From positions 1 through 57,487 of the forward strand of contig JAYVHO010000012.1 of assembly GCA_043771175.1 (NCBI GenBank): DNA of 57,487 nt, given 5' to 3'. The translations under genes were made by a program, and so were the position numbers. Below are positions 3,439 to 9,868 of this stretch, in pieces (position 1 is the first letter of the stretch; each line of letters opens with the position of its first letter). A model generated the notes under the pieces. The model did not search any database, was not told the DNA's origin, and was given only the letters and a program-made list of their open reading frames with translations. The stretch comes from a bacterium. GTDB taxonomy: Bacteria; Patescibacteriota; Minisyncoccia; Phycocordibacterales; UBA1006.

Positions 3439-4074
3439 TTATTTCCGTCCTTCAAGTGCGGAACTGATGGTGGATCTATCCAAATATTCAAGTTCACTAC
3501 CGGTAGAAATTCCACGGCCCAGTGTAGAAATTCTAAAAGAATAAAAAGGAATTTCTGTTTCTATAATGTCTTTAATTTTATTCATGGTCATGTCGCCCTC
3601 TAAAGATGGAGAAAGTGCAAAGATAATTTCTTTTAATACTGATTGGTTTTCAAGAATTTTTACACGTTCAATGAGTTCGGGAATTCTTGAATAGAGTTTT
3701 TTCTTTTTCTGGATCAGTGGTTCCAAATTTCCAATCACAAAATATTTTCCAATATACACAGAAGATTCTTCTACTGCTTTTAAATCTGAATCTTTTTCCA
3801 CAATCATGAGAAGGCTGCTGTCACGGTGTTCATCACGTTCAATTGGTGACAGTCCTGTTTTATCATACGTATCAAAATATATCTGAAAACTTTGTTTGCA
3901 GACTTTCATATTGCCACGGACTTCCTTAATTAAATCAGAAAAACGAGTGATTTCATCACCTGACATTTTCATGAGAGAAAAGATAAATCGTTCTGCTTGA
4001 CGTGGTCCCACACCAGGAAGTGCTTTAAAATAATCAATGAGTTCTTCTTTAACTGACATACTAAAATTCATCAA
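3439..4074 (-). CDS. recR: Recombination mediator RecR
   Basis: LPGVGPRQAERF HhH, TOPRIM region (IVEK..D; EIIFAL....EGD.T) and LGRGISTGSELEYLD. Confidence 0.95.
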   Translation of the reverse strand: MMNFSMSVKEELIDYFKALPGVGPRQAERFIFSLMKMSGDEITRFSDLIKEVRGNMKVCKQSFQIYFDTYDKTGLSPIERDEHRDSSLLMIVEKDSDLKAVEESSVYIGKYFVIGNLEPLIQKKKKLYSRIPELIERVKILENQSVLKEIIFALSPSLEGDMTMNKIKDIIETEIPFYSFRISTLGRGISTGSELEYLDRSTISSALEGRK

Positions 4075-5506
4075 AGTCTACACCAACGCCGCTATGTCCG
4101 CCACCGCCTGTATCTTCATATCCTCGGTCACGAATAATATCTTCAAAGGTGGTGTTTTTACCATTAAAGTACAGTTCTACCATTCCCGTAGGACCATTTC
4201 TATGTTTTTCAATAAGAATTTCTGCGATGTTGGTACGTTCTGATTCATCTTTTGACTTATCTTCACGGTGAATAAACATAACCACGTCGGCGTCTTGCTC
4301 GATTGATCCTGAATCACGAAGGTCTGATAGACGTGGTTTTCCTCCACGACTTTCCACTTGACGTGACAACTGTGACAGTGCCACAACCGGAACATCTAAT
4401 TCACGTGCTAATTCTTTTAATGAACGAGAAATTTCTGTCACTTGTTGCACTACGTTGTCGGTTTTTCTTTCCGGGTTAATAAGTTGAAGGTAATCAACGA
4501 TAATGAGATCCAGGCCATGTTCACGTTTTAATCGTCTGGCCGCAGAACGCATATTTAAAATAGTATTACCGGGTTGGTCTTCAATAAATATTGGTGCTTT
4601 TGAAAGTACTGCCATGGCTTCTTGGATTTTCTCATAATCATCAGGTGAAAGATTTCCATTTCTGATTTTCCACCCATCAACCTTTGACTGAGACGATAGC
4701 ATTCTGTTAATAAGTTGTTCTGATGACATTTCTAGTGAAAAAATTCCCACAGAAGCACCGGCATTTACCGCAGCGTTGCGGGCGATATCCATTGCAAGTG
4801 TGGTCTTTCCAACTGACGGACGCGCTGCCAAAATAATGAGATCAGAACGTTGAAGTCCGGATAGTTTTAAATCAAGTGCCGCAAATCCGGTCGATACTCC
4901 ACGCATGGCATCAGGGGATTCCGATAAACGTTCCAGTGCCGCAAATGCTTCCGGAAGAATATCACTGATTCCAATGAATTTATGTTTTACGTGATTTGAT
5001 TCAACCGATTGTGAAAATATTTTTTCTGCATCATTGATGGTTTCACCCAGTGTTTTGTCTTCAATAAATCCCAGTTCGGTGATTTGTGCGCCAGCTTCAA
5101 TAAGATTTCTGTGAGTTGCTTTTTCAGCAACAATTTTTGCGTAATGTTCAATATGGGCAGATGAGTGAGTTGATTCGGTAAGTTTTGAAAGATAATGAGT
5201 TCCACCAACAAATTCAAGCACGCCCAAATCTTTTAGTTTGGCGGTAATGGTCAAAAGGTCGATTGGCTCATGGTTGGTCATGAGGGTTTTCATGGTGGTG
5301 AAAATGAGAGAGTTTTTTTCTGAGTAAAATGAGTCAGATTTGATGAGATCGACAATATCAAACAACGCCTGTGGACGCAAGAGGATTCCACCGAGGACTG
5401 CCTCTTCTGCCTCCAAATTCTGAGGAGGAAGGCGGTTTCTGTACAAATTATCCAGAGAAATCTCGGGTTTTTTGAATGTGCTGTTTTTATTGTCCGTTTT
5501 GGCCAT
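4061..5506 (-). CDS. dnaB: Replicative DNA helicase
   Basis: PPQNLEAEEAVLG, Walker A ARPSVGKT, IIVDYLQL, and LSDLRDSGSIEQDAD. Confidence 0.99.
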   Translation of the reverse strand: MAKTDNKNSTFKKPEISLDNLYRNRLPPQNLEAEEAVLGGILLRPQALFDIVDLIKSDSFYSEKNSLIFTTMKTLMTNHEPIDLLTITAKLKDLGVLEFVGGTHYLSKLTESTHSSAHIEHYAKIVAEKATHRNLIEAGAQITELGFIEDKTLGETINDAEKIFSQSVESNHVKHKFIGISDILPEAFAALERLSESPDAMRGVSTGFAALDLKLSGLQRSDLIILAARPSVGKTTLAMDIARNAAVNAGASVGIFSLEMSSEQLINRMLSSQSKVDGWKIRNGNLSPDDYEKIQEAMAVLSKAPIFIEDQPGNTILNMRSAARRLKREHGLDLIIVDYLQLINPERKTDNVVQQVTEISRSLKELARELDVPVVALSQLSRQVESRGGKPRLSDLRDSGSIEQDADVVMFIHREDKSKDESERTNIAEILIEKHRNGPTGMVELYFNGKNTTFEDIIRDRGYEDTGGGGHSGVGVDFDEF

Positions 5507-5613
5507 GTTGGTAGTAGTATAGCATTTTGATAAGAATAATTAGAATTTACTTGACTTTTTCCTTATTATATGTGATAATAAATTCATATTTTTTAACATA
5601 AAACCAATCAGAA

Positions 5614-6327
5614 ATGAAAAATTTTAGTGATTTCACTGAACAAGATTTAGAAAATCTTGTCGAGTCATGTGGTGGTCCTGAAAATGCATGGGCTCAAGTT
5701 CAAGAATTTTTAGCCAAAAAAGCAAACAACGCTACAAATCTACAAAAAGTAGATGAAAGTATTGAAGTCAAAAAGCAAAAAACAATCACATTCTGGAAAA
5801 CACAATTTAATACTGATATTCCAGAAACAGACATCATCCCACCTCAACCAGAGCATTTGTCCTATCTTAGTTGGTCACCAGAAAAATCTTTACGTAATTG
5901 TGATGAAGTATTACAAAAATACAAAGAACAATTCGGTGAAGATAATATATATTGTTACTATGATTCAATTGATGAGTCAATTCAGACACAACAAGACCGC
6001 ACAGAAGAAAGTTACTGGTACTGGCATAAGGGAGAGGAAGAACCAGATAAAAGACACCGAGGTAAATCGTACGATGTATTTTCAAAAGAAGAAACAAAGT
6101 ACATGATTCCTTTTGAAGGTATAGTGTTTGCCTATGAATATAGACTTAGCACAGGCAAAATGTTAGATATTGATGGTGTTACCTATTTTCACGCTCTGTA
6201 TTCTGGCGGCAACGTCATCCTCATGTGCGAGAACGATAGCGAATTCTACTTCGACTACAATTACCGCAATCGCAGTAATGACAAGTACGGACCCCGTGAG
6301 ATCAGTTTTAAAACTTTTCTCTTGTAA
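5614..6327 (+). CDS. DGR target protein with a C-terminal variable region (probable C-type lectin-like fold)
   Basis: The last ~45 codons contain a VR matching the downstream TR with adenine-specific differences. The fold is inferred from known DGR targets. Confidence 0.9.
   Translation: MKNFSDFTEQDLENLVESCGGPENAWAQVQEFLAKKANNATNLQKVDESIEVKKQKTITFWKTQFNTDIPETDIIPPQPEHLSYLSWSPEKSLRNCDEVLQKYKEQFGEDNIYCYYDSIDESIQTQQDRTEESYWYWHKGEEEPDKRHRGKSYDVFSKEETKYMIPFEGIVFAYEYRLSTGKMLDIDGVTYFHALYSGGNVILMCENDSEFYFDYNYRNRSNDKYGPREISFKTFLL
6193..6301 (+). repeat. DGR variable repeat (VR)
   Basis: 109-nt ungapped match to 6569-6677 with 16 mismatches; the last 28 nt are identical (IMH side). Confidence 0.97.
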
Positions 6328-6332
6328 CTTTT

Positions 6333-6365
6333 AACCCTTGCGCTTGTAAAAGTGTGAGGGTTTTT
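6333..6365 (+). promoter_or_regulatory. Hairpin 3' of VR (DGR target-recognition hairpin and/or terminator)
   Basis: aacccttgcgctt-gtaa-aagtgtgagggtt, a 13-bp stem with 3 G:T pairs and a GTAA loop, followed by a T run. Confidence 0.7.
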
Positions 6366-6568
6366 GTAATATATTAATATGGTTATTAAACTGGTTTGTG
6401 TATACAAATAGCAGTTTGCCACATTTTAAAAACTGCCTATGCTGACGTGCGTATAATAATGTATACGAAATAATGATAATGATCTTATCAAATGGATATA
6501 TAGCAGAGTATCCTCAACCCTTGGTTGCGACTGGGTGTGGTGAATAGATGTGTCAGTATAGAAACGGG

Positions 6569-6677
6569 GCTCTGAATTCTGACGACAACGTCATCAACAT
6601 GTACAAGAACAATGGCAAATTCAACATCAACTACAATAACCGCAATAACAGTAATGACAAGTACGGACCCCGTGAGA
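6569..6677 (+). ncRNA. DGR template repeat (TR)
   Basis: Non-coding copy of VR with 44 adenines and 12 AAY codons in the VR frame; 15 of 16 differences fall at TR adenines. Confidence 0.97.
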
Positions 6678-6683
6678 AGTTTT

Positions 6684-6706
6684 AACCCGCTATAGATGCG
6701 GGTTTT
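6684..6706 (+). terminator. Hairpin 3' of TR
   Basis: aacccgc-tatagat-gcgggtt followed by tt. It overlaps the avd stop codon on the other strand. Confidence 0.6.
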
Positions 6707-7068
6707 CTGCTACGGATTTATACCAACCATGTGCCATAATAGAAATTTTTTGGAGTTCCTGAATAATTTTTAAATAAAATTCTGAAGTAATAATATTAAG
6801 TTCATATTCTGTTCTTATTATATGTTTTGAAACTTCGATATTTCTACGAAGTGAAAGAATATATGGTAGTTTTTCTTTCTTATTAAGTAATCCTGCTTGA
6901 ATACTTTGCTCAAGTGTTTTTAAAATAGAGGTAAGTAGTTGGCTATGAATACCTAATTTGTCTTGCTTTGAAAGTTTACTGCTTGCTCTATAGGTATTTT
7001 TATATACACTTTCTATATGATGAACAATAGGAATTGCAAGGAAGTTTTCTCGGGGGGGTACTATTCAT
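6690..7068 (-). pseudogene. avd: DGR accessory variability determinant (Avd, four-helix bundle), frameshifted at the C7 tract
   Basis: Hand translation gives ...LAIPIVHHIESVYKNTYRASSKLSKQDKLGIHSQLL...LRRNIEVSKHIIRTEYELNII...ELQKISIMAHGWYKSVAENPHL*, matching the Avd E.G.M..GW-type C-terminus. The ATG at 7068 is one base out of frame (379 nt = 126 codons + 1). Confidence 0.85.
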
Positions 7069-8043
7069 AGTAATTTATTTAATAGTATAACATCGCTTGA
7101 AAATATATTAGATGCATGGAATAAATTCAAGATACAAAAACTTAAAAAATTTGGAGTGCAAGAATTTAGATATAATTTAGAAATAAATTTATTACAAATT
7201 CATAAAAAACTTATAAGTAAGAAATACATCCCAGACCCATATAAACCATTTTGTATTCAAGATCCTAAAAAACGCTTAATTCATAAAGCAGAAGTGTCTG
7301 ACAGGGTCGTGCATCAAGCAATCATTAATATTATTGAACCAATTTTTGATAAAAGTTTTATAAACGATTCTTTTTCTTGCAGAAAAGGTAAAGGAACACA
7401 CAAGGCTGTTAAAAGATTTAAATATTTTTTACAAAAAGTAAGTAAAAATAACACTCAGCAAACATGGATATTGAAGTGTGATGTTAAAAGATTTTTTGAT
7501 TCTATAAATCACGATATTTTAAAAGAACTTTTACATAAAAAAATTGAATGTTCTGAAACAATAAACCTTTTGAATATAATTATAGACAGTTTTGAAAAAT
7601 CAGAAAATACTGGATTACCACTTGGAAACTTAACAAGCCAATTTTTTGGAAATATATATTTACACGAATTAGATTTTTTTATTAAACATAGTTTGAAGGT
7701 AAAATATTATCTCAGATATTGTGATGATATGATTTTGGTAAGTAATAGTAAAATTGAACTTCAAAGTTGGCTTAAAACTATAACTGAATTTTTATACAAA
7801 AATTTGAAACTTGAAATCCATCCATCCAAGATATTTTTTAGAAAATATACCCAAGGAATGGATTTTTTAGGATATATAACATTTCCGAATTATACAATTT
7901 TAAGAAAAAGTACTAAACAAAGAATTATTAAAAAATGGTCTGGTTTGAATAATGATCAAAAAAATTCATATTACGGCGTTTTGAAATATTCAAAAAGTTT
8001 TAAAATAAAGAAAATTCTAAATAAAGAAGAAACAAATATATAA
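7017..8043 (+). CDS. DGR reverse transcriptase; 5' end frameshifted at G7 (track ORF 7156..8043 is the in-frame part)
   Basis: GLPLGNLTSQ (DGR-type SQ), YLRYCDD, RKGKGTH, and LKCDVKRFFDSI motifs. The RT frame stays open upstream to 7024 and encodes the conserved ITSLENILDAW segment, but has no ATG/GTG/TTG before 7156. Confidence 0.93.
7052..7058. repeat. G7/C7 homopolymer inside the overlapping 5' ends of RT (+) and avd (-)
   Basis: cgggggggta at 7051-7060. It is the longest G/C run I noticed in the window. Confidence 0.95.
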
Positions 8044-8141
8044 TTTATTGACATATATAATTAAATAATGTATTTTGTTGATATCTTGTTTAACTAATAG
8101 TTAATCGTTCACAATCTTAAGATGAAAAGGAGGTGTAAAAA

Positions 8142-8423
8142 ATGGAAGACCCAAATAATCAATCATCAACTAATTCTGATATAGTAACAATTGCTGAAAT
8201 AGCTGATAAAGTTGATGCAAGTTCTAATAATGGTTGGAATGAGAAAGATGAAGCTGAAGCAACAGGTCAATAATCGAGTAATGTTTCAAATACCTGGCAT
8301 TCTGTTCGAGATGATGCACAAGAGTCAGGTGAATTACCAGAAAGAATGTTTACAAAAGAAGACTCACAAGATGGCGGAAATGGTTCTGGCATTTTTAGTT
8401 TTCTGAGTGGCATATTTGATTAG
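8142..8423 (+). pseudogene. Small acidic hypothetical protein with an internal in-frame TAA (8271-8273)
   Basis: Strong SD (aggaggt) before ATG 8142. MEDPNNQ...EATGQ*SSNVSNTWHSVRDDAQESGELPER...FD* continues in one frame through the stop. Confidence 0.6.
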
Positions 8424-8491
8424 TATTTTAAACATAAAACTCTTACCATTTATTTGTGGTGAGAGTTTTTTAGGCTGTACTCATAGTTAGT

Positions 8492-8815
8492 ATGAAAAAC
8501 TTTAAAGAAATTACACCAATTCCATATACTCTTGAAGAAGATTTAGAGTTAATAAAAACAGAAAACTTTACAAATAAAAAATTAATTGAAAAATATTCAT
8601 TTTATCCAACTCTGATACTTATGGATTATCAATTTGAATATTTTTACTTTAGAGATTCTGTGATTGAAAAAATCACCACCGAACTTCTTCAATACGCTAA
8701 ATACTATCATGAGTATTCTACAGAACTTAATGAGTCACTTTATCAAAAATTACAAAAATTTACCGAAGAGTTGATGGTAAAATATATCGTTGAAGAAAAA
8801 GCAAGAAAGATATAA
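8492..8815 (+). CDS. Hypothetical protein
   Basis: 107-aa ORF with normal codon usage; no recognised motif. Confidence 0.6.
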   Translation: MKNFKEITPIPYTLEEDLELIKTENFTNKKLIEKYSFYPTLILMDYQFEYFYFRDSVIEKITTELLQYAKYYHEYSTELNESLYQKLQKFTEELMVKYIVEEKARKI

Positions 8816-8854: not shown

Positions 8855-9868
8855 ATGTCAGAATTCGCTCCAAAAACAAACATATCTGTGAAACGAATTA
8901 TAACCGGAATTAGGCCTACTGCGACGCTAACCATCGCTAATCTCATAGGAGCTGCGGTTCCCTTATTAGAACTACAAAATACTACTGAAGGGCAGGTCTT
9001 GGTATTTGTTGCGACAATGCATGGACTTACTGACCATGAAGCAATTCAATTAAACACAGAAGAGATTGTTAAAGACTATCTTGCACTAGGTCTAGATCCA
9101 AAAAAAGTAATCATTTTTGATCAAAAAGATATTAGAAAAGAGGTTGCTCTTTTGAAAATGTATCTTGAGCGTCATCTTACGGTTGCTCGTGCTTGTCGAG
9201 TTCCAACGCTCAAGGATAAACTTCGACAAGGACAGAAACCAGAAGAAGCGAATGTTCTACTGATGAACTACCCAGTAATGATGGCAGCTGATATTTTTTT
9301 GCAAGATGCTGATGTTGTTCCAGTTGGTAAAGATCAGTATTCACATATGGAGCTTATGCGAGAACTTGCCGATTCAGTAAATGAAAAATATGGAAAAGAC
9401 AAAAAAATTCTTGTTCGAGCTGAAACCATGAATCGTGATGAACCTATCAATATTTTGTCACTCAATGGTGAAGGTAAGATGTCAAAATCAAAACCAGAAG
9501 GTGCAATATTTTTAACAGATAGCCCAGAAGTTATTACAAAAAAAATGAAGCGAGCTGAAACTGCAATTGAAGGCGATATGAGTGATAAACTTAATAATCT
9601 TATTAAAATCGCAGATGCTTTGGCTCCTGAATACAATAAAGAAATTGAGTCAATAATAGCTCGTCATATGTCAGGAGAGAAAGTAATGGGTGAGCTTAAA
9701 AAGCTTCTCACAGAAATACTTATTAATTTTACAAAAGCATTTCAGGTAAGACGTGCTGAAATTACTCATGAACAGGTCTCAATTATTTTGAGTGAAGGTT
9801 CAGTGATTGCAAAAACAAATGCTAATATTGTGCTCGAAAGATTAGAGAAAGCTATGGGTTTAATATAA
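8855..9868 (+). CDS. trpS: Tryptophan--tRNA ligase
   Basis: TGIRPT, TIAN (HIGH-like), YPVMMAADI, VPVGKDQ and KMSKS motifs. Confidence 0.96.
   Translation: MSEFAPKTNISVKRIITGIRPTATLTIANLIGAAVPLLELQNTTEGQVLVFVATMHGLTDHEAIQLNTEEIVKDYLALGLDPKKVIIFDQKDIRKEVALLKMYLERHLTVARACRVPTLKDKLRQGQKPEEANVLLMNYPVMMAADIFLQDADVVPVGKDQYSHMELMRELADSVNEKYGKDKKILVRAETMNRDEPINILSLNGEGKMSKSKPEGAIFLTDSPEVITKKMKRAETAIEGDMSDKLNNLIKIADALAPEYNKEIESIIARHMSGEKVMGELKKLLTEILINFTKAFQVRRAEITHEQVSIILSEGSVIAKTNANIVLERLEKAMGLI

Follow-up and report, generated by a model that had tools for sequence, protein, structure and literature searches.

The question raised by positions 5614-8043 of contig JAYVHO010000012.1 (analysed over its whole length of 57,487 nt, hereafter the window) is whether a diversity-generating retroelement (DGR) whose reverse transcriptase (RT) and accessory gene, avd, are both out of frame has been lost for good or has been turned off. 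The cassette is chromosomal and reads target gene with its variable repeat (VR), template repeat (TR), avd in antisense, and RT. The original prediction had placed a complete DGR of this composition between dnaB and trpS, and all of its parts were found there. Its RT belongs to the DGR clade, a TR/VR pair with adenine-specific differences marks the 3′ end of a target open reading frame (ORF), and an Avd-like gene is present; on these grounds we are virtually certain that the region is a genuine, complete DGR of the layout seen in the Candidate Phyla Radiation (CPR, or Patescibacteria). Regarding its present state, the reading that we favour, with some reserve, is that of a CPR-type DGR in which both enzymes are gated by a common slippage-prone G tract, that is, by an on/off switch that stands in the off position in this copy.

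The VR (6193..6301, plus strand) and the TR (6569..6677, plus strand) align over 109 nt without indels and with 16 mismatches, 15 of them at TR adenines (A>G 8, A>T 5, A>C 2; the remaining one is a TR G that reads A in the VR). Our realignment thus gave exactly the counts reported before, and the adenine bias survived it: given that 44 of the 109 TR positions are A, the chance of finding at least 15 of 16 mismatches on A is P = 1.2e-5. All 16 mismatches fall at codon position 1 or 2 of the target frame, where they alter 14 residues (196-220). The TR lies in the sense orientation of the RT gene and, read in the VR frame, 12 of its 37 codons are AAY and 42 of its 44 adenines occupy codon positions 1 or 2. 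The divergence between the repeats begins after GAGA, a small ACGG/CCGT inverted repeat lies within the repeat, and TR and VR agree throughout their last 30 nt even though nine of these are A, consistent with a putative 3′ segment of the initiation of mutagenic homing (IMH) type. A terminator-like hairpin with a T-run (6333..6362, plus strand) ends the target gene 32 nt past the VR. The 15 A-site changes, all non-synonymous, are the record of past mutagenic homing; the VR has already been diversified and the element was active in the past, as had been proposed.

A genome-wide search returned one RT and one VR. The only other weak match to the TR (contig 23, 16587-16625; E 6e-4) falls in an unrelated membrane-protein-like ORF and was rejected as a second VR, being taken as a chance match. 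We also observed that the segments following the VR (6326-6337) and the TR (6677-6688) have AA(C/G)TTTTAACCC in common, each running into an AACCC...GGGTT hairpin, and that the TR/VR homology becomes 8 nt longer if a 2-nt indel is allowed (AGTTTTAA).

The RT gene (7017..8043, plus strand) has ATG codons at 7017 and 7020, followed by a G7 tract and then by a 327-codon open body in another frame. This body (7060-8043) matches RVT_1 with an E of 5.9e-27 and retains the motifs PLGNLTSQFF and RYCDDMIL, which hold the LGNLTSQ and YCDD noted earlier. Over 291 aa it shares 35% identity with Brt, the RT of Bordetella phage BPP-1 (E 8e-61), and its best match in the PDB is 8ub7_A (328 aa, E 1.7e-49), whereas RTs of the group II intron and retron type score about 1e-21; it does not, then, group with the latter. 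The identity of 8ub7 is unconfirmed from the literature, and the RT was therefore compared directly with the annotated Brt. Phage records contain relatives at 37-43% identity, among them RTs of Vibrio phage VP585 and ANMV-1, both known DGR carriers, and of Bordetella phages; nearly all RT relatives come from metagenome-assembled genomes (MAGs) of Patescibacteria. On the other strand avd (6696..7068) reads from an ATG at 7068-7066 through the complementary C7 into a 118-codon open body in another frame (7052-6699) that ends at the stop 6698-6696. The body matches the profiles PF22296 bAvd (E 2.3e-6, positions 3-107 of 107) and NF033474 DGR Avd (E 7.9e-8, positions 2-104 of 104), both below the curated cut-off, and the homologous ORFs of relatives carry PF22296. 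A pairwise comparison with bAvd gave no similarity, and a sequence search against solved structures gave no match.

The G7/C7 homopolymer (7052..7058, both strands) is located inside a 52-nt head-to-head overlap of avd and RT. Both genes read from their ATGs into this run and then meet stops, and neither body frame has an in-frame ATG, GTG or TTG near its N-terminus. As a consequence of both genes crossing the homopolymer, the public annotation calls no gene at avd and a truncated RT of 295 aa from a GTG at 7156. The original prediction had described RT and avd as frameshifted, which is correct insofar as no start codon is joined to either body, but these are not separate lesions: a single event in one shared G7 disrupts the two frames together, and a tract of G6 or G9 would repair them. 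At those lengths the RT would read MMNNRNCKEVFSGG(G)TIHSNLF... and Avd would read MNSTP(PP)RENFLAIPIV.... Apart from the tract, both bodies are free of stops and of further frameshifts, and the RT motifs are intact. That neither body is joined to a start codon at G7 bears on the present activity of the element, not on its identity.

An error of sequencing or assembly, with a true tract of G6 or G9 and both genes intact, is very improbable. It is true that homopolymers are error-prone and that the contigs of some relatives break at the tract; however, the MAG and an independent Logan assembly (SRR14689442) agree on G7 within 6.9 kb of identical sequence (6,888 nt, G7 and VR included), five contigs yield the same gene calls, and a run of seven bases is short for a consensus-level error.

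We collected RT relatives (41-68% identity) from the same family, from a set with one genome per species and from metagenomes. The same gene order together with A-biased TR/VR pairs was present in 123 of the 181 related loci fetched. Among the 166 loci with enough upstream sequence, 130 (78%) have six or more consecutive G in the 200 nt upstream of the RT N-terminus; no locus has a C run there. The lengths of these 130 tracts are distributed as 6:2, 7:11, 8:8, 9:42, 10:40, 11:17, 12:7, 13:1, 14:1 and 26:1; the G26, at the avd/RT junction of a metagenome locus (L114, 1453-1478), is an extreme expansion unless it was created by the assembly. In 68 of 71 loci the opposite strand has an Avd-like ORF of 85 aa or more that starts immediately past the tract. 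On the RT tree, rooted with Brt on a long branch that leaves the root unsure, the loci with a tract are all contained in a single clade of 148 rows (Shimodaira-Hasegawa-like approximate likelihood ratio test, SH-aLRT, 100) and the tract-less loci are basal or scattered as losses. The median end branch measures 0.61 changes per site. The persistence of a pure G run through such deep divergence points to selection on the run itself, since in these AT-rich genomes its Gly and Pro codons would be expected to drift to GGA/GGT and CCA/CCT. The tract of the window being homologous to this conserved, length-variable poly-G of most related CPR DGRs, its off state is better read as the setting of a built-in tract than as random decay. 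We rejected the G7 as a statistical oddity of the genome, which has 4 runs of at least seven against 5.7 expected; the argument is one of positional homology.

A canonical RT start follows the tract in 49 of 119 analysable loci, most often 14 nt past it, and is lacking in the other 70, the window included. Brt starts only 4 residues before the conserved His, the one that here follows the tract. Taking the two together, RT translation in the 70-locus class must, as judged from this alignment, begin at or upstream of the tract. With respect to avd, 49 of 119 loci offer no upstream ATG in frame and no canonical start in the first 8 codons past the tract. Relatives without the tract have adjacent or overlapping start codons, with avd and RT intact in 9 of 9 contigs, and their Avd begins MN(E/D), which resembles the MNS leader of the window. 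The upstream ATGs of the window are thus presumably its real starts.

These same data bear on whether the tract could be a non-coding control element, for instance a G-rich ribosome-binding site or spacer for the RT, with both genes starting downstream, non-canonically where needed, and nothing frameshifted. The RT's own ATG, GTG or TTG past the tract in the 49 loci would suit such an arrangement, as would the in-frame ATT that lies 4 nt past the tract in the window and the fact that the tract is always G on the RT-sense strand. We nevertheless regard it as quite improbable: the other 70 loci offer no canonical RT start past the tract, poly-C cannot be a ribosome-binding site for avd, the Avd body of the window has no canonical start in its first 8 codons nor any in-frame ATG, GTG or TTG early enough for an ORF of at least 40 aa, and the tract-less relatives use the same MN... 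ATG that sits upstream of the tract here. We also rejected ATT as the usual RT start past the tract: in the class that lacks a canonical RT start, the conserved His is not regularly preceded by ATT.

Next, we compared tract lengths between contigs encoding an identical RT protein. The locus L065 has G10 and L143 has G9, with 0 mismatches over 2,601 nt. L204 has G9 and both L205 and L207 have G11 on a background identical over 3.4 kb, while the second strain group of that set has G10. A further set (P0034) comprises three G10 and three G9, and four other pairs with identical RT have equal tract lengths. The MAG GCA_018063105.1 harbors two separate DGRs of this type (L206 and L227), whose own tracts, G10 and G9, are both length-polymorphic across samples. 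The two strain groups of L204-L208, with identical RT protein, show about 20 differences in the VR (columns 1-131, many of them G/A) against 9 in the other ~2.2 kb, an excess that we interpret as the trace left by recent homing with mutagenesis in a relative that has the tract. The family lacks MutS in 54 of the 55 genomes (30 with a completeness of 90% or more), and no MutL turned up in the genome of the window. A tract kept in most relatives, lengths that differ on identical backgrounds and the missing MutS lead us to a slipped-strand on/off switch, in which the length would change by replication slippage and which we infer to be in use.

The family genomes (G002, G012, G015, G016, G026 and others) have a handful of runs of G9 or longer each, many at DGR avd/RT junctions and several elsewhere; those outside these junctions suggest further homopolymer-gated genes in these MutS-less genomes. 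Two of the runs (G018, contig 3, 1-34; G004, contig 6, 23-32) lie at contig ends and may be artefacts. The genome of the window itself, being MutS-less, has three other candidate variable sites among its G/C runs of at least seven, two G8 and one C7 (contig 7, 17115-17122; contig 18, 7305-7312; contig 6, 67607-67613).

Several observations weigh against a switch, and they must be read together with the rivals that they favour. The first group concerns the window's own population. G7 and the same VR recur in all 5 public contigs, so that no length variation is seen there, and the target protein is likewise identical across the 5 contigs, which carry the RT ORF, with one VR version. A relative with G8 is also monomorphic in 10 contigs or assemblies, and a G7 is unexceptional for the composition of this genome. 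Plain decay, by which a one- or two-base contraction of the tract (G9 to G7, for example) killed both genes for good and left a young pseudo-DGR, would accommodate this uniformity and the apparent stability of short tracts; it would also agree with the shortness of the window's tract by family standards (13 of 130 tracts do not exceed seven G) and with a genome of the same genus that is entirely without a DGR. It has to explain, however, why the 327-codon RT and 118-codon Avd bodies have no stop or further frameshift and keep all catalytic motifs, and why the sole lesion falls exactly in the tract, itself conserved and variable clade-wide. On balance we consider decay unlikely, though it is the most serious of the rivals.

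The second group concerns the reading frames across loci. At the assembled length, avd is in frame with the upstream ATG in 35 of 119 loci, and in the class of the window the two genes are jointly in frame in 16 of 70 loci and jointly out in 43. The in-frame share of related loci, only about 30%, is what random phase would give, which fits a neutral or mostly-off switch and equally an untranslated tract or a bypass by RNA-level slippage. The tract shift needed by RT is the same as that needed by avd in 49 of 68 loci (P=1e-10); we rejected this coupling as independent evidence, because it arises from each ATG being antisense to the conserved His codon of the other gene, and it offers the switch no independent proof. 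Slippage of RNA polymerase or of the ribosome on the G/C run would put a fraction of products in frame whatever the DNA length, giving low constitutive Avd and RT with no switching. The single length peak at 9-10, the lack of a 3-nt periodicity and the in-frame share of about a third are what it would predict. It does not account for DNA lengths that vary between otherwise identical strains, the G7 is shorter than the usual slippage-prone length, and transcriptional slippage is documented mainly at A/T runs; we hold it for less likely still than decay.

The last reservation concerns the length differences themselves. Variation was seen at 9 G or more and not at 7 or 8, which fits length-dependent slippage, but would also fit length-dependent sequencing error, and the differences at 9 G or more could partly be sequencing or assembly noise. 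A consensus difference of two on identical backgrounds argues for real alleles.

Under the slipped-strand switch, the element may work as follows. As in the Bordetella phage model, a short plus-strand TR RNA would end at the hairpin just past the TR, and a complex of RT and Avd would copy it while misincorporating opposite adenines. The cDNA would then replace the VR, rewriting up to ~20 surface codons of a 237-aa cytoplasmic protein. The homing mechanism is taken from that model, and what the window contributes is its footprint, the 15 A-site changes. The first codons of the divergent avd and RT would overlap, with the poly-G read as Gly codons in RT and as Pro codons in Avd, so that tract length would set the frame of both genes at once; at G7 both would be out and the DGR off. 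Among the lengths observed, short runs such as G7 are the more stable ones, and this copy may for that reason be resting in the off position.

Regarding the TR transcript, a consensus scan found weak promoter-like hexamers 5′ of the TR (TTGCCA-16-TATGCT, then TGCGTATAAT; 6416..6458, plus strand), a weak candidate for the start region of a separate TR transcript. Directly 3′ of the TR lies the stem-loop AACCCGC-TATAGAT-GCGGGTT followed by TTTCT (6683..6703, plus strand), which overlaps the avd stop and is likely the end of the TR RNA, a terminator common to the convergent avd, or both. A comparable hairpin directly follows the TR in 18 of 18 inspected relatives and, across 119 loci, the post-TR segment has a more stable predicted fold than other windows of the same locus (mean z -1.7). 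This conserved, stable hairpin suggests a short separate TR transcript. A crude terminator rule was satisfied after the TR in only 56 of the 119 loci, and we therefore claim a hairpin and not a proven terminator. Rfam gave no RNA family within 5400-8500.

The target gene (5614..6327, plus strand) encodes a 237-aa protein that is helical in its N-terminal part and finishes in an alpha/beta domain, whose extreme C-terminal end holds the VR (codons 194-230). As had been noted, there is no obvious signal peptide; the N-terminus is hydrophilic. No Pfam, NCBIfam or PDB profile matched the target, and 17 homologous targets of related DGRs were also without a Pfam match; a k-mer homology search recovered only the target itself. 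HMMER found 86 homologs of 200-265 aa, and 17 of the collected DGR loci have a homologous target. A C-type lectin (CLec) fold had been proposed for structural verification. AlphaFold (AF2) gave a confident model of the whole protein, with a predicted local distance difference test score (pLDDT) of 91.6 and a predicted template modelling score (pTM) of 0.80 (94.5 and 0.89 for residues 83-237), in which the VR forms the C-terminal strands. In a Foldseek search against the PDB, however, neither the whole model nor the C-terminal domain had a significant match (best E 0.16-0.2, template modelling (TM) score at most 0.55). The weak list consists mostly of C-type lectins, formylglycine-generating enzyme (FGE), EgtB, Mtd, TvpA and TaqVP, and a divergent CLec-like fold is plausible for the modelled target. 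This target family (~240 aa, with no signal peptide or known domain and a confident, unmatched fold) constitutes a defined, uncharacterised class of diversified intracellular protein.

The host genome has 0.67 Mb in 23 contigs, with 35% GC and a completeness of 89.65%. The cassette is flanked upstream by dnaB (4061-5506, minus strand) and downstream by a TrpS-like gene (8855-9868, plus strand), with two small ORFs between the cassette and the latter. The only other genome of the genus has recR (80% identity), dnaB (86%), a PemK toxin gene and trpS in that order, and no RT or DGR was found in it, at the dnaB-trpS gap or elsewhere. The toxin gene in the place of the DGR (L192, 2981-3448, genome G028) encodes a 155-aa protein of the PemK/MazF type (PF02452, E 1.4e-13). 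Since the congener carries this gene and no DGR between dnaB and trpS, the gap appears as a variable spot, or islet, and the cassette as an insertion relative to the congener. The TrpS-like protein has TIAN at the expected HIGH position of the class I motif, where the congener has HLGH, and keeps KMSKS; it is 36% identical to the congener's TrpS, with the first 7 residues matching, and its gene is the only TrpS-like one detected in the 89.65%-complete genome. Between the cassette and this gene, 8142-8423 (plus strand) holds a 43-codon acidic ORF with an in-frame TAA at 8271-8273, after which the same frame is open for ~49 codons to a TAG near 8421; this is a pseudogene or a small gene interrupted by a stop, and no family matched it.

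Compared with the BPP-1 DGR (mtd-VR, avd, TR, brt), the window shares the 35% identical RT with its (I/L)GxxxSQ and YxDD motifs, the adenine-specific TR/VR differences at codon positions 1 and 2 of AAY-rich codons, the VR at the 3′ end of the target and an Avd-type gene. It differs in that avd is antisense and lies between TR and RT, and not upstream of the TR; in the head-to-head overlap of avd and RT with a homopolymer in their common 5′ ends; in having a hairpin directly past the TR in place of an Sp-like spacer between TR and RT; and in being chromosomal and not phage-borne, with a small, cytoplasmic-looking target that is not a tail fibre. Gene order and orientation are those of the B3 DGRs of CPR and DPANN (PMC5758913; DGR clade 2 of Roux et al. 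2021, PMC8144416), the architecture TR-(avd)-RT to which 90% of the CPR set in Wu et al. 2018 (PMC5758913) belongs, and the target, like most CPR DGR targets (PMC5758913, PMC8144416), is of unknown family. The DGR itself is thus an ordinary further member of the B3 layout catalogued for CPR bacteria. The texts of PMC5758913 and PMC8144416 make no mention of a poly-G tract at the avd/RT junction, and full-text literature searches, whose coverage did not extend to Paul et al. 2017, found no paper on a poly-G or slippage tract in a DGR.

The closest parallel to the tract is found in the poly-G/C contingency loci of Campylobacter jejuni, Neisseria and Haemophilus (PMC3025981, PMC5084427), which it resembles in having a G run, mostly of 8-12 and with a mode of 9-10, close to the 5′ end of an ORF, in lengths that differ between otherwise identical strains (here, in the DGRs of relatives) and in a lineage without mismatch repair. 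A 5′ coding homopolymer sets the frame of otherwise intact ORFs here as well, provided that the upstream ATGs are the starts. Unlike the known loci, one tract would gate two divergent overlapping genes, and with them a targeted hypermutation machine and not a surface structure; the tract of the window is also only G7 and apparently fixed, switching here being our reading of the sequence.

Finally, these results bear on how DGRs are counted and on how they may be controlled. Where genes run across a homopolymer, surveys that accept only intact ORFs will miscount or misjudge the DGRs of CPR bacteria. We see an even chance that most Patescibacteria DGRs carry a second-order mutator switch, in which a hypermutable poly-G randomly toggles targeted hypermutation in a host devoid of mismatch repair; a lineage could then freeze a useful VR variant with the switch off, as in the window, and reopen diversification later. 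If this is true, the poorly understood question of how a DGR is turned on would receive, in a large clade, a genetic answer that is simple and open to direct test, namely that one hypermutable site controls another.

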